In this document: positions 10,744 to 22,977 of the stretch, one piece after another
Layout: the number at the start of each line of letters is the position of its first letter
How positions within the stretch are numbered: the stretch's first letter is position 1
The notes under the pieces: model-generated
Databases searched by the model: none
Told to the model about the DNA's origin: nothing
Seen by the model: the letters and a program-made list of their open reading frames with translations, nothing else
Position numbers and translations under genes: made by a program
NCBI RefSeq assembly: GCF_000019605.1
Contig: NC_010482.1
Location: 1,260,001 to 1,292,000, forward strand
Length of the DNA stretch: 32,000 nucleotides
Direction: 5' to 3'
Source of the DNA: Candidatus Korarchaeum cryptofilum OPF8
GTDB lineage: Archaea; Korarchaeota; Korarchaeia; Korarchaeales; Korarchaeaceae

Positions 10744-10847
10744 GCCGGGGTAGCTCAGCCTGGTTTGAGCGCCGGACTCATAAGTGGGCAGGGCCCCGGC
10801 GCCGCTGGGATATCCGGAGGTCCCGGGTTCAAATCCCGGCCCCGGCA
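10744..10847 (+). tRNA. tRNA with CAU anticodon (elongator Met, or Ile2 if C34 is modified) containing a 29-nt intron at 37/38
   Basis: Manual cloverleaf: acceptor GCCGGGG/CCCCGGC, D stem GCUC/GAGC, anticodon stem CCGGA/UCCGG, loop CUCAUAA, T arm CCGGG-UUCAAAU-CCCGG, discriminator A. Intron at 10783-10811. CCA is not encoded. Not initiator-like, since the 5' end is not AGCGGG. Confidence 0.9.
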
Positions 10848-10878: not shown

Positions 10879-11691
10879 ATGGTCAAAGATGGGCTACTAA
10901 CTCCGATAGGAGACCCTCCTAATATTATGGCTTACTCCCACCTTCAGATCTCGTTCATCGGCTTCATCTTGAATGTAGGCCCGCCCACCCTCCTGATCTA
11001 TGTGATCTCGCTAGCAGTGATTATGACCCTCTTCAGGAGGGAGATGAAATTCGAAATAGGGAATAAAAATGACAGAAGAAAGCCGAAAATAGAGAAAAAT
11101 TTCCTTATAATCAGCATTTTAGTATTAACTCTTGTACTTTTGCTTTTCCTTCTTCAGGATATCACTGGGATAAGTCCCAGCGCCTCGGCTCTCTATGGTG
11201 CGACCTTACTGATGATAATAGGCGGTAGGAGGATGGCTACCATACTCAGGGAGGTTAACTGGGATCTCCTCATTTTCCTCGGAAGCATCCTGATCTTTTC
11301 CGGAAGCTTGGAAAAAGTCGGTATTCTCCATTTATTAGCTCAGATTATTTCTAAATCAACTCATGGGAACCCACACACCCTAACGACACTCATAGCGTGG
11401 CTCTCATCCCTCGTCTCAGCATTAGTCGATAACATACCTTACGCGGCTGTGATGATACCCGTCATAGATGAACTAGTGAGCTTGACTGGCTACTACGAGC
11501 TTTGGTGGGTTTTCCTGATCTCCGTTGGCTTAGGGGGGATAGCGACGCCGATAGCCTCAGTGCCCTCTCTCCTCACATACTCCGCGTTGAGGGATAAGTT
11601 CGAATTTAAGTTCCTAGATTTTATGAAGATCGGCTTAATCGTATGGGTAATTTTGACTTTATCCCTGAATCTATATTATTTGCTGCTGTAA
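10879..11691 (+). CDS. ArsB/NhaD (citrate-transporter-like) permease, apparently N-terminally truncated
   Basis: 270 aa with about 7 TM segments. It begins with GDPPNIMAY, a motif that in my recollection lies mid-protein in full-length (~400-450 aa) family members. An in-frame TGA sits immediately upstream at 10876-10878, and the tRNA ends only 31 nt upstream. Confidence 0.65.
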   Translation: MVKDGLLTPIGDPPNIMAYSHLQISFIGFILNVGPPTLLIYVISLAVIMTLFRREMKFEIGNKNDRRKPKIEKNFLIISILVLTLVLLLFLLQDITGISPSASALYGATLLMIIGGRRMATILREVNWDLLIFLGSILIFSGSLEKVGILHLLAQIISKSTHGNPHTLTTLIAWLSSLVSALVDNIPYAAVMIPVIDELVSLTGYYELWWVFLISVGLGGIATPIASVPSLLTYSALRDKFEFKFLDFMKIGLIVWVILTLSLNLYYLLL

Positions 11692-12271: not shown

Positions 12272-12345
12272 TGGGGCCGCCGGGATTTGAACCCGGGACC
12301 TCCGGCTCCCGAGGCCGGCATCCTACCTAGCTAGACCACGGCCCC
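12272..12345 (-). tRNA. tRNA-Pro (CGG)
   Basis: Reverse complement folds as GGGGCCG-UG-GUCU-AGCUAGGUA-GGAU-G-CCGGC-CUCGGGA-GCCGG-AGGUC-CCGGG-UUCAAAU-CCCGG-CGGCCCC-A. 74 nt, no intron, CCA not encoded. Confidence 0.92.
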
Positions 12346-12373: not shown

Positions 12374-12736
12374 TTATGGTTGGGAGTGGCTCACCGACCC
12401 GCATGTGAGACCGCTGATGACCCCCCTCTCAAATATTATTGAAATCGTGACCCCCTCATCTTCAATATCTAAATCTATCTCTTCAGTTTTGGAATAAAGA
12501 GTTTCGTTTAGCTCCATTATTTTAACGATTTTACCGTCTTTCGATAGGGTAAGATAGTATATCTTGCAAGGAGAGCCATTATTCTCGAGTAAAACACGCA
12601 CCTTTCCCTCTCCGCATTCCATAGTAGCGACTAGACCGGATTTGAATTCACTAACCTTCTCATAGCTGATCAATAGTGCTGAGAATGCGAATAAAACTGC
12701 GGCAGTTACCAGCAATATTTTTCCATTTATACTCAC
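12374..12736 (-). CDS. Hypothetical protein with N-terminal membrane anchor or signal
   Basis: 120 aa. One hydrophobic N-terminal segment (ILLVTAAVLFAFSALLI) is followed by a probable beta-rich domain with 3 Cys. Has a 4-nt overlap with the upstream ORF. No family recognised. Confidence 0.55.
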   Translation of the reverse strand: MSINGKILLVTAAVLFAFSALLISYEKVSEFKSGLVATMECGEGKVRVLLENNGSPCKIYYLTLSKDGKIVKIMELNETLYSKTEEIDLDIEDEGVTISIIFERGVISGLTCGSVSHSQP

Positions 12737-13101
12737 TCACCACCCGATTTGACCCTCTCGGAGAACCAACTGGGTTCCTTGGAGAGCTTCACTACCGGGA
12801 AGGTTAGCTTATCTGAGGATAACTCCTGCAAGAACTCGTAATGCTCCCCCGTCTCATCCGCCCTGTAAACTAGGAAACTCCCGTCATCATCCCCCTCGTA
12901 AAGCGTGAAGGAGAAGACATCGAGCTTAGTTATCCCGTAATTGTTTGCGAAAGTCCCTATGACTCTCCCATTGAGGGAATCGCTCCAGAATTCTATCAAC
13001 ACCGAGACGGAATCCGTGGATGCTGCCAATCTCAGTAGATCTAGGATCGATTTCAATCTCAATAACTCCAATTCCCAATCACTCCTTTCCTCTCCCAACA
13101 T
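12733..13101 (-). CDS. Hypothetical acidic soluble protein
   Basis: 122 aa. Same strand and spacing as the TrmB operon. No motif recognised. Confidence 0.55.
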   Translation of the reverse strand: MLGEERSDWELELLRLKSILDLLRLAASTDSVSVLIEFWSDSLNGRVIGTFANNYGITKLDVFSFTLYEGDDDGSFLVYRADETGEHYEFLQELSSDKLTFPVVKLSKEPSWFSERVKSGGE

Positions 13102-14203: not shown

Positions 14204-15580
14204 TCAGTCTTCCACCACCACGCCCATCAGATCCATGACATTGGTCAAAGTGGGTCCCGTTATTATCGCATCACCTAACCATGAGAAGAAGCTGTAAGAG
14301 TCATTATTCTTGAGGTACTCCTCGGGCTTCAACCCCTCACTTAAAGCCCTCTCAAGCGTATGACCATCGCATATAGCTCCAGCAGCTTCCGATGTACCAT
14401 CTATACCATCAGTCCCAATAGATGCTATAGCTACTCCATCTAGCCCAGCTACTTGCCTCACCGCACCGAGTACAAGTTCTTGATTCCTCCCGCCTACACC
14501 CTTTCCCGTCACGGTAACAGTGGTCTCCCCACCCATTAGGAGGGCTGCTGGAGGGGATAGAGGTATTCCCTCATTCCTGATTGAGGAAGCTAGTCCAGCG
14601 AGCATCTTCCCTATGTGTCTAGCCTCCCCCTGAACTCTAGATCCCAGGACCAATGTACTATACCCGAGGCTCCTCAGGACGCCCTCAGCCGCCTGAACAG
14701 CTTTAAGGTTGTTCGCGACTATCATATTAGTTACGTTCTCAAATATCGGATCCCCGGGCTTTGGAGTTTCCGGGATCCTTCCTTCCACACCATCCTTTAT
14801 CACCTTTATGATGGATTGGGGCATCCTCTCCACCAATGAATAGTTCCTCAAAACCTCCCAGGCATCTTGGAACGTAGTCTCATCTGGTGCTGTTGGACCC
14901 GATGCTATCGTATCCAAGGGATCCCCTATGACGTCCGATATTATCAGGGATACGACTCTAGCCGGATATGCGGCCTCAGCTAGCCTCCCTCCCTTCACCC
15001 TCGAGACGTGCTTCCTAACTGTGTTTATTTCCCTTATGTCTGCCCCACTTAGGACGAGTAGCCTGTTCATTTCTCTCAAATCTTCCAAGGTTATGCCCTC
15101 CATCGGATATTCCATGAGTGCTGAACCTCCTCCCGAGATCAGCACTATGACTAGATCCTTCTCATCCGCCTTTGAGAGTATTCTCAGCATCTCCCTCGCC
15201 CCGTTGATACTCCCCTCATCCGGGATGGGATGGCCCGCCGGATTCAACCTTATCTTTGATAAATCAACCAGTTTCTCTGTTTTAGCTGGTACATTCACCC
15301 AGCCCTCAGATATCCTCTCTATCTTATCTTCAACAGCTTTCGCCATCATGCCGCTAGCTTTTCCAGCCCCTATAACGAATATCTCCTCGAAATCACTCAG
15401 CTCTATAGACTTATTCATCTGGAATATTGAGTTGTCCGATATCCTGCTAGAGACGGACTTATATGGATCTACGGATGCTATCGCCTTATCGAATGAGAGT
15501 AATATCGATCTTCTAGCATTTTTATCCTTTTGCGTGGGGCCATTCATCGTCAAATCCTCTAAATTCTTTATATAGCTCAA
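14204..15580 (-). CDS. gck: Glycerate 2-kinase (MOFRL family)
   Basis: Has LISGGGSALM, GGETTVTVTGKGVGGRNQE and GTDGIDG motifs (DUF4147 plus MOFRL architecture). 458 aa. Confidence 0.9.
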   Translation of the reverse strand: MSYIKNLEDLTMNGPTQKDKNARRSILLSFDKAIASVDPYKSVSSRISDNSIFQMNKSIELSDFEEIFVIGAGKASGMMAKAVEDKIERISEGWVNVPAKTEKLVDLSKIRLNPAGHPIPDEGSINGAREMLRILSKADEKDLVIVLISGGGSALMEYPMEGITLEDLREMNRLLVLSGADIREINTVRKHVSRVKGGRLAEAAYPARVVSLIISDVIGDPLDTIASGPTAPDETTFQDAWEVLRNYSLVERMPQSIIKVIKDGVEGRIPETPKPGDPIFENVTNMIVANNLKAVQAAEGVLRSLGYSTLVLGSRVQGEARHIGKMLAGLASSIRNEGIPLSPPAALLMGGETTVTVTGKGVGGRNQELVLGAVRQVAGLDGVAIASIGTDGIDGTSEAAGAICDGHTLERALSEGLKPEEYLKNNDSYSFFSWLGDAIITGPTLTNVMDLMGVVVED

Positions 15581-16812
15581 GGTGAATCCACCTCCCTCAT
15601 CCCCAGCTCCTCACCATCCTCGCTGAGTCTGATGAACCCGAATATTATGCTATCAACATCTCCCCCATACCTCGTGAGGATCTCCGCCTTCCCATCCAGG
15701 GGATCGAAGGATTCCATTATCCCCACGCCCGAGCATCTCCCATTCAGCTTGAGACCAACATATAAGTTTTTGTATACGTTGATCGGGGCGCATTTAACTT
15801 CCTTTCTCATAAGATCCTCTAACTTCTTCACCTTCATCCTCTCAACATACCCCTCGCTGAGTATTAAGAGCATATCAGCAGACTCCTCGACCCATATTAC
15901 CCCGCTCCCCATAAGCTCGGATAGGAAGGGAGCATATTCTCTCCTCTCATCTCCCGTGAACAGGAAAGTATTCTCTATTCTGACCTTCCTCAAATCGAAG
16001 GTTCTTCTATTCCCATTTTCGAGATATTTCTTGTATAATGCCTTCCTGCAGAGGGATCTATAACCCTTATCCTTGGGCAGATCTCTGACGGGGGATCTCA
16101 CATTCACGGCTTTCGCGCCTATAGGGACGCTGCGTATCAAGTGCCTGAGCTCCCCCTCAGATCTCTCTATGAATATTATGACATCGGGCTGTAAGAGCTC
16201 TATCTTGAGTTTCTTGAGCGTCCTCGCTGCGGCACCATCGACGAAACCTGTCGTATTTATGAGAATCGTTTTCTCCTTGACATCCCTAAAAGCTTCCCAC
16301 GTGCCCACTAGGAATTGGAGTAAGTGACCTCTCGGGCTCTTATCCCCTATGAAGTACATGAACTCCGGATCCAAGAGCTTCATCTGATAGACCGGATCCC
16401 TCAAGTTAGATGAAGATATCACCCCGGGCGGACCGAGATCCGACTGCCCGATATCGGAATCTATTATAGAAACTCTGGTACCGTTTAGGAGCAACTTATT
16501 GGCGAGGTAGAGGATAGAGGAGCTCTTCCCTGAATCCACCTTCCCAATAAACATAACAGTTTTATCTGGTATCTTCTCTAGAAGATTATGCCACCATTCC
16601 GGAATTGGATCATTTATTTTAATAAAATTCGATCCAATGATATTTAATTTTGCTCCATGGTTGCTCGTTATCAGGAGATCCATGGCTTCCTGAGAGAGGC
16701 TTATCTCTTCGAAAGGCACACCCCAGACCTCAGCATCCCCGGAGATCACTTTAATAGTAGCAGGAGTCCTAGCTATCAATCCCTCATTGCGTTGGAGCTC
16801 GACCTCTTCCAT
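15577..16812 (-). CDS. clp1: Clp1/Grc3-type polynucleotide 5'-hydroxyl kinase
   Basis: P-loop GKVDSGKSS followed by IIDSDIGQSDLGPPG, characteristic of the Clp1 kinase domain. 411 aa. Has a 4-nt overlap with gck. Confidence 0.8.
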   Translation of the reverse strand: MEEVELQRNEGLIARTPATIKVISGDAEVWGVPFEEISLSQEAMDLLITSNHGAKLNIIGSNFIKINDPIPEWWHNLLEKIPDKTVMFIGKVDSGKSSSILYLANKLLLNGTRVSIIDSDIGQSDLGPPGVISSSNLRDPVYQMKLLDPEFMYFIGDKSPRGHLLQFLVGTWEAFRDVKEKTILINTTGFVDGAAARTLKKLKIELLQPDVIIFIERSEGELRHLIRSVPIGAKAVNVRSPVRDLPKDKGYRSLCRKALYKKYLENGNRRTFDLRKVRIENTFLFTGDERREYAPFLSELMGSGVIWVEESADMLLILSEGYVERMKVKKLEDLMRKEVKCAPINVYKNLYVGLKLNGRCSGVGIMESFDPLDGKAEILTRYGGDVDSIIFGFIRLSEDGEELGMREVDSP

Positions 16813-16982
16813 CGGGTCTCCCCTAAGAGGGACGATAAAAAGGTAGTGCTATCCATGAATTACTTCGATGAGGAGAGAAGAATGAAGGGTGGGGTGAAAG
16901 GTGTTACTATGATCGTCCCGTGAAGTTTTGAAGTATTTTAGCTGATCGCATGATTTAATAGTACTATGTGGGAGGGAGTATT

Positions 16983-17726
16983 ATGTTTAGTGTTAAGGTG
17001 GGTTGCTGTGGCTTCCAGATATCTAAGAAGAAGTACGCTGAGATCTTCGATCTCGTGGAGGTTCAGGAGACCTTCTACAAATTGCCCAAGTTGGAGACCG
17101 TGAGAAGATGGAGGGAGGAAATTGGAAGCGAATCATTCGAATTCTCCGTCAAAGCATGGATGGTTTTCACACATGATCCATCGAGCGCTATCTGGAGGAA
17201 AACGGGAGTTCCTAAAGATGATGATTATGGTTTTCTCAGACCCACTGGTAAAAATCTCGAGGCATGGGATCACTTCAGAGAGATCCTGAGGGAGCTCAAC
17301 TCCGATCTCGTGATATTTCAGAGCCCACCTTCTTTCAAAGCGACGGATGAGAATATTAAGAACTCGAGAGATTTCTTCGAATCCATAAAAGGGGGGCTTA
17401 GGATAGGATGGGAAATAAGGGATGAGAGCTGGCTGAAAAGTGATCATTTCAAGAGGATCCTGGAGGATCTAGGAATAACTCACGTAGTTGATCCCCTCTA
17501 TGAGGTACCCATTCATGGGAGTTTCAGGTATTACAGGCTTCACGGATCGAGGAAGGGGAGGAGGATCGTTTACAGTTACAAGTATTCGGAGGAGGATCTA
17601 CTCAAGTTACTGGAATATTTGAGGAAGTATGCGATGGAAGTTAATTATGTCCTCTTCAATAACTCCTACTTCAGCTTAGATAATGCTAAGAGCTTCAAGT
17701 CCCTCTTGGAATCTCAGCTCAAGTAG
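16983..17726 (+). CDS. DUF72 (UPF0759) family protein
   Basis: N-terminal VGCCGF and YYRLHGS motifs as in DUF72 TIM-barrel proteins. ATG at 16983 is preferred over the upstream GTG at 16968, and GGGAGGG precedes it. Confidence 0.8.
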   Translation: MFSVKVGCCGFQISKKKYAEIFDLVEVQETFYKLPKLETVRRWREEIGSESFEFSVKAWMVFTHDPSSAIWRKTGVPKDDDYGFLRPTGKNLEAWDHFREILRELNSDLVIFQSPPSFKATDENIKNSRDFFESIKGGLRIGWEIRDESWLKSDHFKRILEDLGITHVVDPLYEVPIHGSFRYYRLHGSRKGRRIVYSYKYSEEDLLKLLEYLRKYAMEVNYVLFNNSYFSLDNAKSFKSLLESQLK

Positions 17727-18997
17727 TACCATCCCTCCATCTTCGACCAGTCCCACTTTATCCCCTCGCTGACGGCCATCCCGTAAACTATAGAGCCCCT
17801 CCAAACGCTGAATTGAGGGTCCGAAACTATCTTTGGATCGACTTCCAGCCCTATTGACCTCAACATATTCTTCAATTTCGTTGGAGAATCCGTTGCTATT
17901 CCCTCTAAACCCTTCGGAACGCTCCAGTTGAAAGCACCGCCTGAGAGTATTATCCTCCTAGAAACGGAAGTTTGGAGCTCAACCGGTATCTTTGATATCG
18001 AAAGCCTTATAGCTTCAGCTAGCGTCACGTTCCCCGGGATCACCTCTCCACCTATTAGAGTATCCTTCGGAGGAGTGAAGCCCCTCGAGTAATAGCTCTC
18101 AAATATTTCATGACCCGGGTTGAAGAAGAACTCACCGATTAAGAATCTCTGCCAGGCCTTCTCCCCCATATCGATCTCCACAGTGGTTCCGGGAATCCTG
18201 AATACTGATTGAAGGGCTCCTGGATGATCTTTAGACCATGGAATAGCTTTATTTAGGTCTAACGGAAGTAATCCAGCCATTTCTTTGAAGATTCTGACGA
18301 ATTTCTCCTCTCTAGCTAGATCTGAGTACCCCAGATCTTTCAGTATCTGGGCGGTTATCTTATCTGAATCGCTCCCTCCTCTATTGAGAGGTATTAACGC
18401 TGCCCTTATAACGTCCCTACTTATCGGTGTCACTTGAGTGTTCCCGTGGCCGGCCTCCACTACTACGCAAGTTACCGCTTTCTCCGCGATAGCAACAGCT
18501 AAGGGCTGGGGTATTATCGTCACCGCTCTGACTAAACCCCCTCCTTCCTCTGAGTTGACCTCCTGATATATCTCGAAGAGCCTCTCATACATATAAGTTG
18601 GGGCTTGCGCAGCTAGAGCTGCCACAACGAAGAAGCCTGAGAATGGTATTCCTGTAGTATCGACTCTCCCGGGATAATGCTTAAGTAAGGAGTACCTTAC
18701 GAGCTCCTTGACGACTTTCCACCCTCTTTGATCTTCTCTCTCTATAACTCCGTTCCTCATAGGATAATAGAGTCTCGATAGATCAGCTCTAGACTCCAGA
18801 TACTCTGAGACCTCATCCCCAACGACGACTTCCTTCACGCTTATTCCTCTCACCTCAGCCGAGACCTTGGATATCTTAGGGAAGTACCCCCTGTTCTCTA
18901 TCACGCTAGGGCCGGTCTTCATCATCCACCAGGGACCGAATTTGTAGAACGAGGTCCCGAAGTCGGAAGCGAAAACTGGTTTAGGTTGAGCTAGCAT
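17714..18997 (-). CDS. Crenactin (archaeal actin homologue)
   Basis: Actin-fold motifs in the crenactin form: DFGTSFYKFGP, IIPQPLAVAIAEKA, VVEAGHGNTQVTPIS, LNRGG, ILKDLGYSDLAREE, IILSGGAFNWSVP and PQFSVWRGSIVYG (compare actin SVWIGGSIL). Confidence 0.9.
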   Translation of the reverse strand: MLAQPKPVFASDFGTSFYKFGPWWMMKTGPSVIENRGYFPKISKVSAEVRGISVKEVVVGDEVSEYLESRADLSRLYYPMRNGVIEREDQRGWKVVKELVRYSLLKHYPGRVDTTGIPFSGFFVVAALAAQAPTYMYERLFEIYQEVNSEEGGGLVRAVTIIPQPLAVAIAEKAVTCVVVEAGHGNTQVTPISRDVIRAALIPLNRGGSDSDKITAQILKDLGYSDLAREEKFVRIFKEMAGLLPLDLNKAIPWSKDHPGALQSVFRIPGTTVEIDMGEKAWQRFLIGEFFFNPGHEIFESYYSRGFTPPKDTLIGGEVIPGNVTLAEAIRLSISKIPVELQTSVSRRIILSGGAFNWSVPKGLEGIATDSPTKLKNMLRSIGLEVDPKIVSDPQFSVWRGSIVYGMAVSEGIKWDWSKMEGWYYLS

Positions 18998-19586
18998 GGC
19001 CTGACACCTCCCTCATCCGTCTCAGATCGGAGGCCCTGATAAGCTTATTGGGGTTCACTCTCATTCTGCTGAGATCTACCTCAATGCCCTCCCTAATGAG
19101 GAGCAGGGCCTTCAGCTCCTCCCCGTAACCGTAGCCCCCTACCCTCATGTCTCCCCTGACCACTCTATGACAGGGGACTATGAGCGGGAAGGGGTTCTTA
19201 GATGCGTAAAGCCCGACGGCCCTCGGGGAAGTAGCTATCAATCTAGCGAGCTCCCCATAGGTCGTGAACGTACCCCGGGGGATGAGGGAAATCGCTTCGA
19301 GGGCCTCCTGGAATTTTATGTTTTCATGATTTGCTAACATTATATTAGAAGTATCTTCATTTTCTCCCGAGAATATTTTGTAAATTTTTACTGGCAACTC
19401 TCCACAATTCACAGAGCCCTTCTCCAATGTGAGATTGGGCCAAGCGGATCTGCAGTTCTTAATTAGATCATTCTCGGCCTCTTTTTCTCCCCTTAGAGGT
19501 ATCGTATTGCAGTAAATTGTCCCTTCAGCCTCGGCAATTCCTATGAATGAGCCTCCTATCGAGAAAATCTCGTACTTTACTCTCAT
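18981..19586 (-). CDS. ogt: O6-alkylguanine-DNA alkyltransferase (Ogt/MGMT)
   Basis: Active-site IVPCHRVV plus the upstream TYGELA helix-turn-helix region. 201 aa. Confidence 0.9.
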   Translation of the reverse strand: MRVKYEIFSIGGSFIGIAEAEGTIYCNTIPLRGEKEAENDLIKNCRSAWPNLTLEKGSVNCGELPVKIYKIFSGENEDTSNIMLANHENIKFQEALEAISLIPRGTFTTYGELARLIATSPRAVGLYASKNPFPLIVPCHRVVRGDMRVGGYGYGEELKALLLIREGIEVDLSRMRVNPNKLIRASDLRRMREVSGHASST

Positions 19587-19620
19587 CCCTGACCTCTCAC
19601 GCGCAAATATGGGAATGCGC

Positions 19621-19628
19621 TATATAAA
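19621..19628. promoter_or_regulatory. Palindromic TATA element in the 65-bp divergent ogt/rtcA intergenic region
   Basis: TATATAAA lies 24-31 nt upstream of the rtcA ATG at 19652 and 35-42 nt from the ogt ATG at 19586. Flanked by the inverted repeat GCGCA-N10-TGCGC. Confidence 0.45.
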
Positions 19629-19651
19629 GCAGAGCGGAGGGGGTCACATGT

Positions 19652-20698
19652 ATGGAATTCATCAGGATAGATGGGAGTTACGGTGAGGGAGGAGGATCCC
19701 TCCTGAGGTATGCTATAGCCCTCTCCTCAGTGACGATGAAACCCGTCGAGATATACAATATAAGGGTTAAGAGAGCCAATCCGGGCTTGAGGCCACAGCA
19801 TCTGAATGCTGTAAGGGCTTTAGCGAGGATAACGGAAGCTACTGTAGAGGGCGATGAGGTGGGATCCACTGCTCTGAGGTTCATACCTAGGAAGAGAGCA
19901 GGAGGCAGCTTTGAGATAGACATAGGGACTGCTGGAAGTATAAGCCTCATCATACAAGCAATCCTACCTGCTTGTATATCTTCAGAGGAGGAGATCTCCC
20001 TGAGAATTAGGGGAGGGACCGATGTCCCATTGGCGCCGCCGATCGATTATATGGCTGAAGTCTTCCTCAGGAATATGGCCCCTCTAGGAGTGAGGGCTGA
20101 GCTCAAGTTGCTGAGGAGGGGGCACTACCCTAGAGGAGGAGGTATCGTTGAGCTACATGCTAGCCCATCCAAGCTCTTTCCGATCGATAAAGTGAGAGGG
20201 GAAAAGTTCGATAGAGTTTTGGGAAGATGCCATGCCGTCAAGCTTCCAAGGAGTGTTGTGGAGAGGATATCCTCCTCTGCCATCGATACGCTCAGGAAGG
20301 AGGGGCTGAGGGTTGAGATAGAGGAGGAATGGTCTGAAGATGGGCATTTGGGTCCAGGAGCCGGGATCGTCCTCTGGACAGATTCCAACCCAAGGATCGG
20401 GGCCGATGAATTAGGAGAGAAGGGTAAACCGAGCGAGGTAGTTGGTAAGAATGCTGCTTCAAAGCTCTTAGATGAAATAAAAGCGGGGATGGCTTTCGAT
20501 AGTCACATGGGTGATATGATAATTCCTTATCTTGCTCTAGCCAGGGGGAGATCTAGAGTGGGCATATCGAAGCTTACGTTGCATGCTGAAAGTAACATAT
20601 GGCTCGTTGAGAGATTCCTCCCGGTTAAGTTCATCGTTCAAGGTGGAGTGGGCTCGCCGACTGTGATAGAAGTAGAGGGTGCTGGGCTTGAGCTATGA
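19652..20698 (+). CDS. rtcA: RNA 3'-terminal phosphate cyclase
   Basis: N-terminal DGSYGEGGGSLLRYAIALS matches the RtcA signature. 348 aa. Confidence 0.92.
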   Translation: MEFIRIDGSYGEGGGSLLRYAIALSSVTMKPVEIYNIRVKRANPGLRPQHLNAVRALARITEATVEGDEVGSTALRFIPRKRAGGSFEIDIGTAGSISLIIQAILPACISSEEEISLRIRGGTDVPLAPPIDYMAEVFLRNMAPLGVRAELKLLRRGHYPRGGGIVELHASPSKLFPIDKVRGEKFDRVLGRCHAVKLPRSVVERISSSAIDTLRKEGLRVEIEEEWSEDGHLGPGAGIVLWTDSNPRIGADELGEKGKPSEVVGKNAASKLLDEIKAGMAFDSHMGDMIIPYLALARGRSRVGISKLTLHAESNIWLVERFLPVKFIVQGGVGSPTVIEVEGAGLEL

Positions 20699-22349
20699 TG
20701 ATGAGTTCATGAGGAGAGCCAAATACATCTCTGACATCGCTCACGTAGAACTCGATGAGATCCTGAGAAAGGTTGAGGAATATATAGAGGAAATGGGCGG
20801 CTTAATTAAGCCGGATGGGGCTCTTTCCCTTATCGCAATGGAACTGGGGGTCGAGATTTCATCAGAGACTGTGAAGAAGCCTTTGCTAAGGTTGGACAGG
20901 CTGGTCCCGGGGATGAGAAAGGCATCCGTCAGGGGCAGGATCTCGAAAATATATGGAGTGATAGAATACGTGAATAGAAGTGGAGAGAGATCGGAGAGAG
21001 CCGAGCTTAGGATCTCAGACGATTACGGCCAGGCAGATGTCATAATATGGTCTCAGAGTCTCGTAGATGAGGTTAAGAGGGGGAAGTTGAGAGAGGGTGA
21101 TGAGGTCCTCCTGAGCGATGTAAGAGTGGCTAGCAGAGGCGGGAGGATCGTAATTCATCTGAGCTCGGATTCAAAGATAGAGGTTCTTTCTAGAGGAGTG
21201 GCACCGGCTAGTGAGGTAATATCGAGCACGGAGGAGATTTACGGGAGGGAAGGGGAGGAGATAGACTTCAGGGGAACTGTTGTCAGGACCTTCCCAGTAT
21301 CGGAGTTCATGAGGGAGGATGGGAGGAAGGGAAGAAGGGGATCAGCGATAGTTCAGGGGGAGGATGGAGGTACAATCAGGGTCCTTTTCTGGGGAGATAA
21401 AGCTTCTTACTCTGAGAACCTAAAACCAGGCGCTCTGGTAACGCTCAGGAACTTCAGAGTCATTACTAGGGAGGATTCTGTCGAGCTCCACTCGACATTG
21501 AGGAGCTCTGTGGATATAGAAGGAGGTATTGAGACTATAGAAGCAACAGTCCTTTACAAATTCCCAGAAGAATCTTCTCTCTTGGGAAAGAAGTTCTTAG
21601 ACATTCTAGTTGAGATAGATGGTGAGCTAGCGATATTGAGGATCTGGGATAAGTGGGTCGATCTACTGAGGGGCATGGAGCCGCCCTTCATCGTGAGGGT
21701 AGGTCCTATATTCAGGAGGTACGATGATTTACTTTCGCTCAGCAGGTCCGGGAATCTTGAGATCGTTGAGATAGTAGACAGGAAGGTTAAGGATATAGAG
21801 AAGCTCGCGAGATCCCTCAAGTACAAGAGGGTTCCAATAGGGGAAGCCTCTGACGGCTTCAGGGAGTTCAGGGGAACGATCATAGGGATCTCTGAGGAAG
21901 CTAAGGTCTCTTGGCACTGCCCGCTCTGTGGGGCTAGGGTCAGCTATGAATACGGTAGCTACAGCTGTCCGAATTGCGGCCCACTGGAGAGGGCGATCCC
22001 CCTCCTCTACCTCAGCCTCACGCTAGACGACGGTACTGGGGTCGCTAGAGTGATGGTCTTTGGGAGAAATGCAGAGAGGTTACTTCGGATGAGCACTGAG
22101 GATGTGATAAGGAGGGCTGATGAGCTGGGTCAGCCCTTCCACTCGATACCAACCGATGAGCTCTCAGCTGAGATCTTGGGCAGGGAGGTCATAGTCAGGG
22201 GGAAGGCTACTTACATGGAAGGGGGGCTCGTTAAGGTGGTCCTAGATGAGATCGAACCTGTCGACTATTCAAGCGAGGTTCATTCACTAATAAGGGAAAT
22301 AGAGGAACTTTGGTTGGGGGCTGAGGGAAATGAGAATAGTGATGGATGA
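20679..22349 (+). CDS. rpa: Replication protein A-like ssDNA-binding protein (multiple OB folds plus zinc ribbon)
   Basis: Three to four OB-like repeats; the last is interrupted by CPLCG-N13-CPNCG. The start is ambiguous: GTG at 20679 or ATG at 20709. Confidence 0.8.
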   Translation: MLGLSYDDEFMRRAKYISDIAHVELDEILRKVEEYIEEMGGLIKPDGALSLIAMELGVEISSETVKKPLLRLDRLVPGMRKASVRGRISKIYGVIEYVNRSGERSERAELRISDDYGQADVIIWSQSLVDEVKRGKLREGDEVLLSDVRVASRGGRIVIHLSSDSKIEVLSRGVAPASEVISSTEEIYGREGEEIDFRGTVVRTFPVSEFMREDGRKGRRGSAIVQGEDGGTIRVLFWGDKASYSENLKPGALVTLRNFRVITREDSVELHSTLRSSVDIEGGIETIEATVLYKFPEESSLLGKKFLDILVEIDGELAILRIWDKWVDLLRGMEPPFIVRVGPIFRRYDDLLSLSRSGNLEIVEIVDRKVKDIEKLARSLKYKRVPIGEASDGFREFRGTIIGISEEAKVSWHCPLCGARVSYEYGSYSCPNCGPLERAIPLLYLSLTLDDGTGVARVMVFGRNAERLLRMSTEDVIRRADELGQPFHSIPTDELSAEILGREVIVRGKATYMEGGLVKVVLDEIEPVDYSSEVHSLIREIEELWLGAEGNENSDG

Positions 22350-22977
22350 TAGGGAACCTGAAAGCGTAGAAAGAATTCTCAAGAGTAATGGAATAATCGT
22401 TGAGAGGAAGAGGATAGAAGTAGCCGACTATCTAATAGGAGCGGATGTCTGCGTCGAAAGGAAAACTCTGGAGGACTTTTTGAGGTCTATATACGATGGG
22501 AGACTCTTCGATCAAGTTGAGGAGATGATGAGGTGCTGCAGCAGGATTTTAGTGCTTGTCGAGGGATCTCATAGGCTTGATGGGAGAGGAAGGCTTCACT
22601 ATCTCGGAGCTCTAGCTTATCTATCCCTTAAAGGAGTCTCCGTAATACATGTGAATGGATATGAGGATACTGCCTATCTTCTAACATATCTAGCTAGGAA
22701 AGTTGAGGGAGATAAACCATCTATAATCCCGGTTAGGAGAAGGAGGAAGGCAAAGAGCTTTGAGGAAGCCTATTCTATCCTACTGAGTTTCCCATCGATC
22801 GGTCCAAAATCCGCTGAGAAATTGATGAGTGAGTTCAAAAACCTCAGGGAGATATTCAATGCGGACTTCCCTAAGCTGAAGAGCTTGATAGGGGAAGCCA
22901 AGGCGAGGAAATTCAGGGAAGTCCTTAACTCCCCCTTCGTTTATGAAAGAGAAACTAAGTTGGAGGATCAGGGATAA
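22330..22977 (+). CDS. xpf: Short XPF/ERCC4-family structure-specific nuclease with C-terminal (HhH)2
   Basis: ERCC4 core VADYLIGADVCVERKTLEDFLRSIYDGRLFDQ and HhH region FPSIGPKSAEKLMSEF. Overlaps the rpa 3' end. No helicase domain. Confidence 0.85.
   Translation: MRIVMDDREPESVERILKSNGIIVERKRIEVADYLIGADVCVERKTLEDFLRSIYDGRLFDQVEEMMRCCSRILVLVEGSHRLDGRGRLHYLGALAYLSLKGVSVIHVNGYEDTAYLLTYLARKVEGDKPSIIPVRRRRKAKSFEEAYSILLSFPSIGPKSAEKLMSEFKNLREIFNADFPKLKSLIGEAKARKFREVLNSPFVYERETKLEDQG

Follow-up and report, generated by a model that had tools for sequence, protein, structure and literature searches.

Outside the Asgard archaea, no relative of eukaryotic actin is closer to it than crenactin. In 2011, Ettema et al. 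reportedly described the crenactin of Pyrobaculum calidifontis together with a cluster of arcade genes, which are said in the same report to be restricted to Thermoproteales and Korarchaeota. To our knowledge, arcadin-2 is the only characterised regulator of crenactin. ATP-dependent formation of actin-like double-helical filaments has been shown only for the Pyrobaculum crenactin (PMC5173319). The crenactin of Candidatus Korarchaeum cryptofilum has itself been in the literature since 2009-2011 (PMC2651865, PMC3160578, PMC7613921), and the gene analysed here is that already-described crenactin. The novelty that a sequence-only reading of the locus had attached to it was therefore overstated. 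The new point is only the class-wide ogt-crenactin gene order in place of arcadin neighbours, and it is a minor one.

The window, which is the whole 32-kb stretch of K. cryptofilum DNA analysed, carries the crenactin gene at 17714..18997 on the (-) strand as an ORF of 427 aa. The sequence-only reading had recognised it by four motifs in their crenactin-specific form, and all four lie where it had placed them: DFGTSFYKFGP at aa 12-22, GHGNTQV at 183-189, ILSGGAFNW at 350-358 and SVWRGSIVYG at 397-406. The ATPase motifs of the actin fold are all present, namely phosphate-1 (DxGTS), phosphate-2 (GHGNTQ), the adenosine motif (SGG) and the catalytic Gln within IPQPLAVAI, and the catalytic and nucleotide-binding motifs are invariant in 19 diverse crenactins compared. 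Because the ORF is 100% identical to a Ca. Korarchaeum cryptofilum protein named 'crenactin' by JGI, it is a real gene and not a chance ORF.

Another actin-fold protein of the ParM/MreB/MamK type, an Hsp70-like protein or a sugar kinase could be suspected from the modest Pfam Actin match (E 1.6e-10) and from the weak match to the MamK family in the NCBIfam scan (36 bits). However, the PDB search aligned the ORF over its full length with crenactin (4cj7/5ly3/5mw1; E 3.5e-103, residues 6-425 versus 11-429), and the next PDB match, Arp2, followed only at E 3e-5. The NCBIfam crenactin model NF053560 gave 642.6 bits, above its curated equivalog cutoff of 630, over model positions 2-422 of 422. The protein is 50-55% identical to crenactins across TACK lineages and has the invariant motifs common to them. 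The matches to 4cj7 and NF053560 refute these other identities, whose probability is practically nil.

The gene upstream of crenactin, ogt, lies at 18981..19586 (-) and encodes an O6-alkylguanine-DNA alkyltransferase of 201 aa that matches PF01035 (78.6 bits, Pfam) and TIGR00589 (72 bits, cutoff 46.4, NCBIfam). In the PDB it matches 1mgt and 2g7h with E values of about 1e-17, and the alignment to 2g7h covers residues 10-169. The protein has an N-terminal domain as in archaeal MGMT and a C-terminal helix-turn-helix domain. Homology stops at residue 169, leaving a C-terminal extension of roughly 32 aa past the canonical fold. The active site PCHRV, read from the sequence at aa 138-142 (19161..19175, (-)), is kept in all 27 Korarchaeia-like Ogt orthologues. 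By sequence, the protein is a canonical member of the Ogt/MGMT family and is predicted to carry out stoichiometric alkyl transfer from O6-alkylguanine.

As the sequence-only reading had it, the crenactin ATG lies 17 nt inside the 3' end of ogt. The overlap spans 18981..18997, with the ogt stop codon TAA at 18981..18983 and the crenactin ATG at 18995..18997, both on the (-) strand. A Shine-Dalgarno sequence, GGGAGGTG, is found at 19005..19012 (-), 7 nt before the crenactin ATG, and its nucleotides double as the Ogt codons R192-E193-V194. Korarchaeia relatives have GGAGGTG, GAAGGTG or GAGGTG at the equivalent site, 7-8 nt before the crenactin start. A Shine-Dalgarno-like GAGGT also stands 5 nt before the ogt ATG, at 19592..19596 (-). 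Divergent rtcA is separated from ogt by a spacer of 65 bp with a TATA box, TTTATATA, at 19621..19628 (-). The box is upstream of both genes, at a distance of about 38 nt from the ogt ATG and about 27 nt from the rtcA ATG. In most Korarchaeia loci the TATA box reads TTTAAATA or CTTAAATA and its position is unchanged. The window shows no enrichment of TATA-like octamers (4 versus 2.1 expected), and the element is called a putative promoter of the ogt-crenactin unit on the basis of its position and conservation. It is possibly the promoter of rtcA as well.

Crenactin might instead have its own promoter in the 3' coding region of ogt. In that case the overlap would be a packing effect, the two genes would have separate transcripts, and their translation would not be coupled. 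In some relatives, A/T-rich stretches do occur 35-55 nt before the crenactin start (AATAATAAA in L010/L011 and GATATAT in L018). However, these stretches are conserved neither in position nor in sequence, the window has no TATA-like octamer 35-55 nt upstream of the crenactin start, and the Korarchaeia loci compared share no conserved TATA-like element inside ogt upstream of the crenactin Shine-Dalgarno sequence. The only conserved TATA box is the one upstream of ogt. The strong Shine-Dalgarno sequence of crenactin is conserved, and such sequences are typical of internal cistrons, while archaeal first cistrons are often leaderless. In several lineages, a gap of 3-30 nt lies between the ogt stop and the crenactin start, so that the overlap itself is not required, which is in favour of separate expression. 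On balance, independent expression is quite unlikely. By sequence, the pair has the features of the proposed operon: the two genes are on the same strand with an overlap or a minimal gap, a Shine-Dalgarno sequence precedes the second cistron, a putative promoter is seen only before the first, and the arrangement is conserved in relatives.

The sequence-only reading had proposed a comparison of synteny in related genomes. The ogt and crenactin genes follow each other on the same strand in 27 of 27 Korarchaeia-like loci, with either an overlap of up to about 40 nt or a gap no longer than about 30 nt. These loci have crenactin identities of 61-97%, and their Ogt identity falls to 34-40%. On the other side of the putative promoter region lies the divergent unit rtcA-rpa-xpf at 19652..22977 (+), identified from ORF calls and Pfam/NCBIfam matches. 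It consists of rtcA (19652..20698, (+)), the gene for replication factor A/RPA (20679..22349, (+)) and that for an XPF/Hef-type nuclease (22330..22977, (+)), and its rtcA/rpa and rpa/xpf junctions each overlap by 20 nt. Both rtcA and rpa are syntenic with ogt-crenactin in all Korarchaeia loci having that flank. The rpa-rtcA|ogt-crenactin block outlasts the rest of the neighbourhood and is kept even where crenactin identity has dropped to 61%; in those loci DUF72, XPF, AsnRS and Clp1 have moved. The downstream side of crenactin has been rearranged several times.

On that downstream side, the convergent DUF72 gene of the window (252 aa, 16968..17726, (+); DUF72 match with E 2.4e-38) overlaps the crenactin stop codon by 13 nt at its 3' end. 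This overlap and the family assignments of both DUF72 and ogt agree with the sequence-only reading. The convergent arrangement is kept in 22 Korarchaeia loci, and other genes replace DUF72 in the most divergent ones. Our literature search found no functional information on DUF72. The genes flanking crenactin in the window are ordinary housekeeping genes, and almost all of its close neighbours are involved in nucleic-acid processing (Clp1 kinase, Ogt, RtcA, RPA and XPF/Hef).

Such a neighbourhood could reflect functional coupling, in which the Korarchaeia crenactin would be co-regulated with ogt in the same operon and with rtcA-rpa-xpf through the shared divergent promoter region. The filament would then act in segregation or in repair-linked nucleoid handling, and Ogt, its tail or the neighbouring proteins would replace the arcadins as partners. 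The survival of the block at the lowest crenactin identity is in line with this, as are the nucleic-acid functions of the neighbours and the extra tail of about 30 aa on most Korarchaeal Ogt proteins. A link to DNA also has a precedent, because arcadin-4 is Rad50/SMC-like and arcadin-2 is located between segregated nucleoids (PMC5173319; bioRxiv 10.1101/2022.04.06.487207). However, ogt is near crenactin in none of the 51 non-Korarchaeia loci. The Ogt tail varies, and the L018/L019 and L029/L030 lineages have a short one. Dual coding accounts for the most conserved residues of the tail, K/R-E-V, because the same nucleotides form the crenactin Shine-Dalgarno sequence. Furthermore, it is common for compact archaeal genomes to have conserved operons that combine unrelated functions. 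Our literature search found no paper that treats crenactin together with Ogt or an alkyltransferase. Functional coupling of this kind is unlikely.

A more far-reaching form of the idea is that rewiring has taken the Korarchaeia crenactin out of the arcadin system and made it part of a genome-maintenance regulon. It would be co-expressed with Ogt and, via a shared bidirectional promoter, with RtcA/RPA/XPF; its filament would serve nucleoid segregation or repair-linked DNA handling, and Ogt (for example through its lineage-specific C-terminal tail) or RPA/XPF would be direct partners. We regard the rewiring as very unlikely; if true, it would be a counterpart in prokaryotes of the part that nuclear actin plays in DNA repair.

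The reading that we prefer is that ogt and crenactin probably form an operon that is specific to the lineage and vertically inherited within a compact genome, and in which expression is coupled and function is not. In class Korarchaeia, where no arcadin genes were found beside it, crenactin would be the second of two cistrons and ogt the first. Transcription would start from the TATA box in the 65 bp between ogt and the divergent rtcA-rpa-xpf unit, and crenactin would be translated from its Shine-Dalgarno-led start inside, or a few nucleotides from, the ogt 3' end. Because the crenactin start lies inside or near the ogt 3' end, translational coupling is possible. Ogt and crenactin most likely act separately, the former as a predicted suicide alkyltransferase and the latter as a cytoskeletal filament. 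As an actin-fold protein, crenactin would form filaments in an ATP-dependent manner and presumably helps to keep the cell a very thin filament. We thus infer co-transcription, translational coupling and functional independence, and the pairing most likely reflects shared expression and not shared function. Because the rpa-rtcA|ogt-crenactin block as a whole is equally conserved, inherited synteny and operon compaction suffice to explain the pairing. What speaks against this reading is that ogt-crenactin and the promoter-sharing rtcA-rpa have persisted through deep divergence despite the downstream rearrangements, which could indicate selection for co-regulation with DNA/RNA repair genes rather than inertia.

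The sequence-only reading had also seen no arcadin partner among the flanking ORFs, and HMM, regex and NCBIfam scans of the window were likewise negative. Its observations hold, and none of the three results that it had named as counting against it was obtained: the ORF is nearer to crenactin than to ParM, MreB or Hsp70, no arcadin homologue turned up among the window ORFs, and the ogt-crenactin adjacency is found in the related loci. The arcadin search covered the 32-kb window of the 1.59-Mb genome and, in 27 Korarchaeia-like genomes, the flanks of ±10 kb; no homologue of arcadin-1, -2 or -4 was found there, with limited sensitivity to very divergent homologues. None of the window ORFs matches an Rkd (arcadin) family of NCBIfam. 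The best match of the arcadin-2 family HMM in the window has an E value of 2.4, which is noise. Arcadin-2 has a conserved Trp-containing helix at its C-terminus, and a regular expression for the C-terminal motif has no match in the window or in L001-L033. A profile search of a sequence database with arcadin-2 gave 15 matches, none from Korarchaeum, among the 8000 word-sharing candidates scored, and its sensitivity is low. The PDB sequence search is blind to arcadin-2 because the deposited peptide has 17 aa and chains shorter than 20 aa are excluded. Arcadin-2 is found in 0 of 27 Korarchaeia-like loci, and it adjoins crenactin in 40 of 51 other TACK loci (37 adjacent and 3 overlapping crenactin). 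The arcadin-4 HMM has matches in 16 of these 51 loci but in none of the 27 Korarchaeia-like ones, nor in the window, where the largest ORF is RPA with 556 aa. For arcadin-3, a small protein, a local HMM was built from an ORF of roughly 70 aa between arcadin-2 and arcadin-4 in Thermofilaceae, which is arcadin-3 by position only because no NCBIfam model matches it; this HMM has no match in the window.

An ORF of 122 aa at 12733..13101 (-) was the one candidate for arcadin-1 and was rejected, since neither by sequence nor by profile does it match 5LY5 (arcadin-1, about 14.5 kDa), and NCBIfam gave no match either. Its AlphaFold2 model is confident, with a pLDDT of 84.5, and Foldseek found nothing in the PDB at E <= 0.001. 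This ORF is homologous to a small Thermofilaceae protein encoded divergently beside crenactin (HMM E 1e-6 to 3e-12). Members of the family, named 'cren protein' by NCBI, also occur in Ignicoccus and Desulfurococcus. Other small ORFs linked to crenactin in other lineages (a 74-aa coiled-coil, protein, the roughly 70-aa arcadin-3-like protein, zinc-ribbon proteins and a cyclophilin-like protein) have no homologue in the Korarchaeia loci.

The lack of arcadin-2 near crenactin throughout an archaeal class is a reminder that the regulation of crenactin is not uniform across TACK archaea. Were the ogt-crenactin link functional, it would tie genome maintenance to an archaeal actin. More likely it is not, and the pair is an ordinary case of genes with unrelated roles that share one operon of a compact genome. 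The class-wide unit also offers a concrete hypothesis about an ogt-crenactin co-transcript and its response to DNA damage.

In Thermofilaceae, Bathyarchaeia, Caldarchaeales and Brockarchaeota (L034-L083), the orthologous crenactins, again 50-55% identical, are directly adjoined by a protein that is about 225 aa long and ends in a C-terminal LPSFxKDNPWLxIL motif. Its gene is downstream of crenactin in most lineages and upstream in some Caldarchaeales, and its best NCBIfam match is arcadin-2/Rkd2 with E 3e-5, far under the model cutoff. Thermofilaceae have in addition an arcadin-4-like SMC/Rad50 protein of about 810 aa (Rkd4 model E 4e-78). Two deep-branching MAGs labelled 'Thermoproteota archaeon' (L032/L033) have crenactins of 54-57% identity. 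L032 resembles Korarchaeia in having rtcA directly upstream of crenactin. However, no ogt is seen near crenactin in either of them, the upstream flank of L033 being shorter than 1 kb, and a convergent arcadin-4-like gene lies downstream (HMM E 2e-125 and 2e-180), preceded in L032 by a weak arcadin-3-like match (E 0.035). The gene order in L032/L033 suggests that the linkage to ogt and the loss of the arcadin linkage arose within the lineage.

Unlike the Thermoproteales, which have no FtsZ, K. cryptofilum has FtsZ (PMC3160578, PMC7613921). The P. calidifontis crenactin (4CJ7, 5LY3, 5MW1; PMC5173319) is about 50% identical to that of K. cryptofilum over the full length with no large insertions or deletions, and the two have their nucleotide-binding motifs in common, as well as the catalytic Gln of IPQPLAVAI. 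In gene order, however, they differ: the Pyrobaculum gene lies in the arcade cluster, whereas in Korarchaeia the upstream position belongs to ogt, and the Korarchaeum crenactin stands behind it in an overlapping two-gene unit with no arcadin found nearby.

The 427-aa ORF at 17714..18997 on the minus strand encodes a bona fide crenactin, as the sequence-only reading had proposed from four motifs, all of which are found in this ORF. A PDB sequence search aligns the protein end to end with the Pyrobaculum calidifontis crenactin structures 4cj7, 5ly3 and 5mw1 (E 3.5e-103), the next matches being Arp2 and actin (E about 1e-5). Consistently, the NCBI curated crenactin model NF053560 scores it at 642.6 bits against a cutoff of 630 bits, and the sole other NCBIfam match is MamK (36 bits). 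The gene is already known. The genome was published in 2008, public databases use the name crenactin, a Ca. Korarchaeum cryptofilum database protein of 100% identity is named 'crenactin' by JGI, and the K. cryptofilum actin homologue has been discussed since 2009-2011 (PMC2651865, PMC3160578, PMC4571572, PMC7613921).

The crenactin ORF overlaps the upstream 201-aa ogt ORF (18981..19586, minus strand) by 17 nt, and its stop is overlapped by 13 nt by a convergent 252-aa ORF (16968..17726, plus strand) that matches the DUF72 family; ORF calling agrees exactly with the geometry first read from the sequence. The 201-aa ORF is a canonical Ogt (PF01035, 78.6 bits; TIGR00589 above that model's cutoff), homologous over both domains to the archaeal MGMT structures 1mgt and 2g7h, with the PCHRV active site at residues 138-142. 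A strong Shine-Dalgarno sequence, GGGAGGTG (19005..19012, minus strand), lies 7 nt before the crenactin ATG, and its nucleotides encode Ogt residues R192-E193-V194. Relatives carry an equivalent Shine-Dalgarno sequence, equally far from the start, which is ATG or TTG and falls at the equivalent codon; this conservation supports the choice of start codon as well as translation initiation within a polycistronic mRNA. Only one promoter-like element is conserved, a TATA box with the sequence TTTATATA (19621..19628; TTTAAATA in relatives). It sits in the 65 bp that separate ogt from rtcA, with the ogt ATG about 38 nt away and the rtcA ATG about 27 nt away. On the rtcA side, rtcA, rpa and xpf overlap one another by 20 nt. 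The arrangement looks like two units, cren←ogt and rtcA→rpa→xpf, that diverge from a single short promoter region and are each presumably co-transcribed. Independent transcription of ogt and crenactin is quite improbable, a smaller reading than the genome-maintenance link weighed below. The genes near crenactin (15577..22977) are mostly involved in nucleic-acid processing, encoding a Clp1-type polynucleotide kinase, Ogt, the RNA 3'-phosphate cyclase RtcA, replication factor A and an XPF/Hef nuclease, along with DUF72, and the cluster's core is conserved throughout Korarchaeia.

The usual partners of crenactin were sought in the 10-kb flanks of 80 crenactin loci taken from species-representative genomes. 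A protein of ~225 aa flanks crenactin in Thermofilaceae, Bathyarchaeia, Caldarchaeales, Brockarchaeota and Methanomethylicus, and it combines a variable linker with the strongly conserved C-terminal motif LPSFxKDNPWLxIL. Published arcadin-2 is crenactin-adjacent and binds a hydrophobic groove through a conserved C-terminal Trp-containing helix, a description that the ~225-aa protein fits in its position and its conserved C-terminal motif (PMC5173319). Its best NCBIfam match is arcadin-2/Rkd2, at E 3e-5 and far under the model cutoff. A family HMM places it beside crenactin in 40 of the 51 non-Korarchaeia loci and finds it neither in the 27 Korarchaeia-like loci nor in the window, whose best match has E 2.4. 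Thermofilaceae have an additional SMC-like protein of ~810 aa that matches arcadin-4/Rkd4 (E 4e-78), and the arcadin-4 HMM detects 16/51 non-Korarchaeia loci but 0/27 Korarchaeia-like ones. All substantial ORFs of the window between 7 and 31942 were scanned against NCBIfam, which gave housekeeping and metabolic families only and no Rkd model, and HMMs of other small crenactin-linked ORFs matched neither the Korarchaeia loci nor the window. The non-arcadin context described earlier thus holds for the neighbourhood. Crenactin without adjacent arcadin-2 is not unique to Korarchaeia; the same is seen in 11 of the 51 other loci, mostly Calditenuaceae and related Caldarchaeales. In Calditenuaceae (L064, L069-L072, L078), a conserved ~70-aa zinc-ribbon protein (CSRC...CPYC) is encoded directly ahead of crenactin in the same orientation, at a distance of about 100-300 nt; these loci lack adjacent arcadin-2, and the protein may be another lineage-specific crenactin companion. 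Immediately ahead of crenactin and in its orientation, Thermofilaceae loci such as L041 (9749..9973) and L047 (9677..9898) encode a conserved ~74-aa coiled-coil protein (…EREFIEIMDRLxQ…), which weakly resembles CdvA (E 0.005) and matches no arcadin model.

The minus strand at 12374..13101 carries a tandem pair of small ORFs (122 and 120 aa) with a 4-nt overlap. The first (12733..13101) is a member of the uncharacterised 'cren protein' family and has a Thermofilaceae homologue whose gene neighbours crenactin in divergent orientation, accompanied by a cyclophilin-like ORF of ~125 aa (e.g. L062 9143..9905); in Korarchaeia the gene lies about 5-7 kb downstream of crenactin. It was rejected as arcadin-1, having no match to 5LY5 by sequence or profile, and as an arcadin in general: the family is broader, occurring also in Ignicoccus and Desulfurococcus, and the confident AlphaFold2 model of the 122-aa protein (pLDDT 84.5; seven strands and two helices in an alpha/beta fold) finds no significant counterpart in the PDB. 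Nearby, a CAU-anticodon tRNA gene with a 31-nt intron (10744..10847, plus strand; Rfam 59.5 bits) was missed by ARAGORN, whose only call is tRNA-Pro at 12272..12345. Set against near-identical metagenome contigs, namely L001 and L002 (99.5%) and L004 (90%), the window is 1,769 bp short at 10879..11691 (junction ~10891/10892), within a tandem pair of DASS/CitMHS transporter genes. The L001 genes encode 441 and 415 aa, and the window keeps only a 270-aa remnant ORF covering TIGR00785 positions 167-434 of 444. Either the reference strain has truly lost this segment or tandem paralogues were collapsed during assembly.

The ogt-crenactin adjacency, for which comparison with related genomes had been proposed, holds throughout the 27 Korarchaeia-like loci, Methanodesulfokora included (crenactin identity 61 to 97%): ogt directly precedes crenactin and shares its strand, and the junction ranges from an overlap of up to about 40 nt to a gap of no more than about 30 nt. 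Ogt identity drops to 34-40% in these loci, but PCHRV is always retained. Wherever the flank is long enough, Korarchaeia-like loci contain the four-gene core rpa-rtcA|ogt-cren; this is true even of the most divergent ones, L029 and L030 (61%), in which AsnRS, XPF, DUF72 and Clp1 are relocated or substituted by other genes. In Methanodesulfokora-like loci (L017-L031), DUF72 (or crenactin) is separated from Clp1 by two inserted genes, one IF-2B-family and one RuBisCO-large-like, a pair which we take to resemble ribose-1,5-bisphosphate isomerase and type III RuBisCO of archaeal AMP metabolism. No ogt is seen in the deeper-branching L032 and L033 (54-57%), each of which carries an arcadin-4-like gene in convergent orientation; L032 has rtcA as the gene just upstream of crenactin and, in addition, a weak arcadin-3-like match. 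This distribution suggests that ogt linkage took the place of arcadin linkage within the lineage. A genuine link of crenactin to genome maintenance is an unlikely, minority reading of the pairing: no ogt was found near crenactin in the loci of other lineages, and the Ogt tail of ~30 aa past the canonical fold is variable, its most conserved residues coinciding with the embedded Shine-Dalgarno sequence and so more readily accounted for by dual coding than by a role in binding. Inheritance alone predicts the persistence of operons and divergent promoter pairs. For these reasons, ogt and crenactin are probably coupled in expression without being coupled in function.

No mention of the class-wide ogt-crenactin unit and its promoter region common with rtcA-rpa-xpf was found in the searchable literature. 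Its significance would grow only if transcript or interaction data tied the filament to DNA repair. The locus differs from the arcade cluster, as arcadin-1, -2 and -4 were looked for nearby and none was found, and the ogt-crenactin unit is a small comparative-genomics addition rather than a new kind of system.
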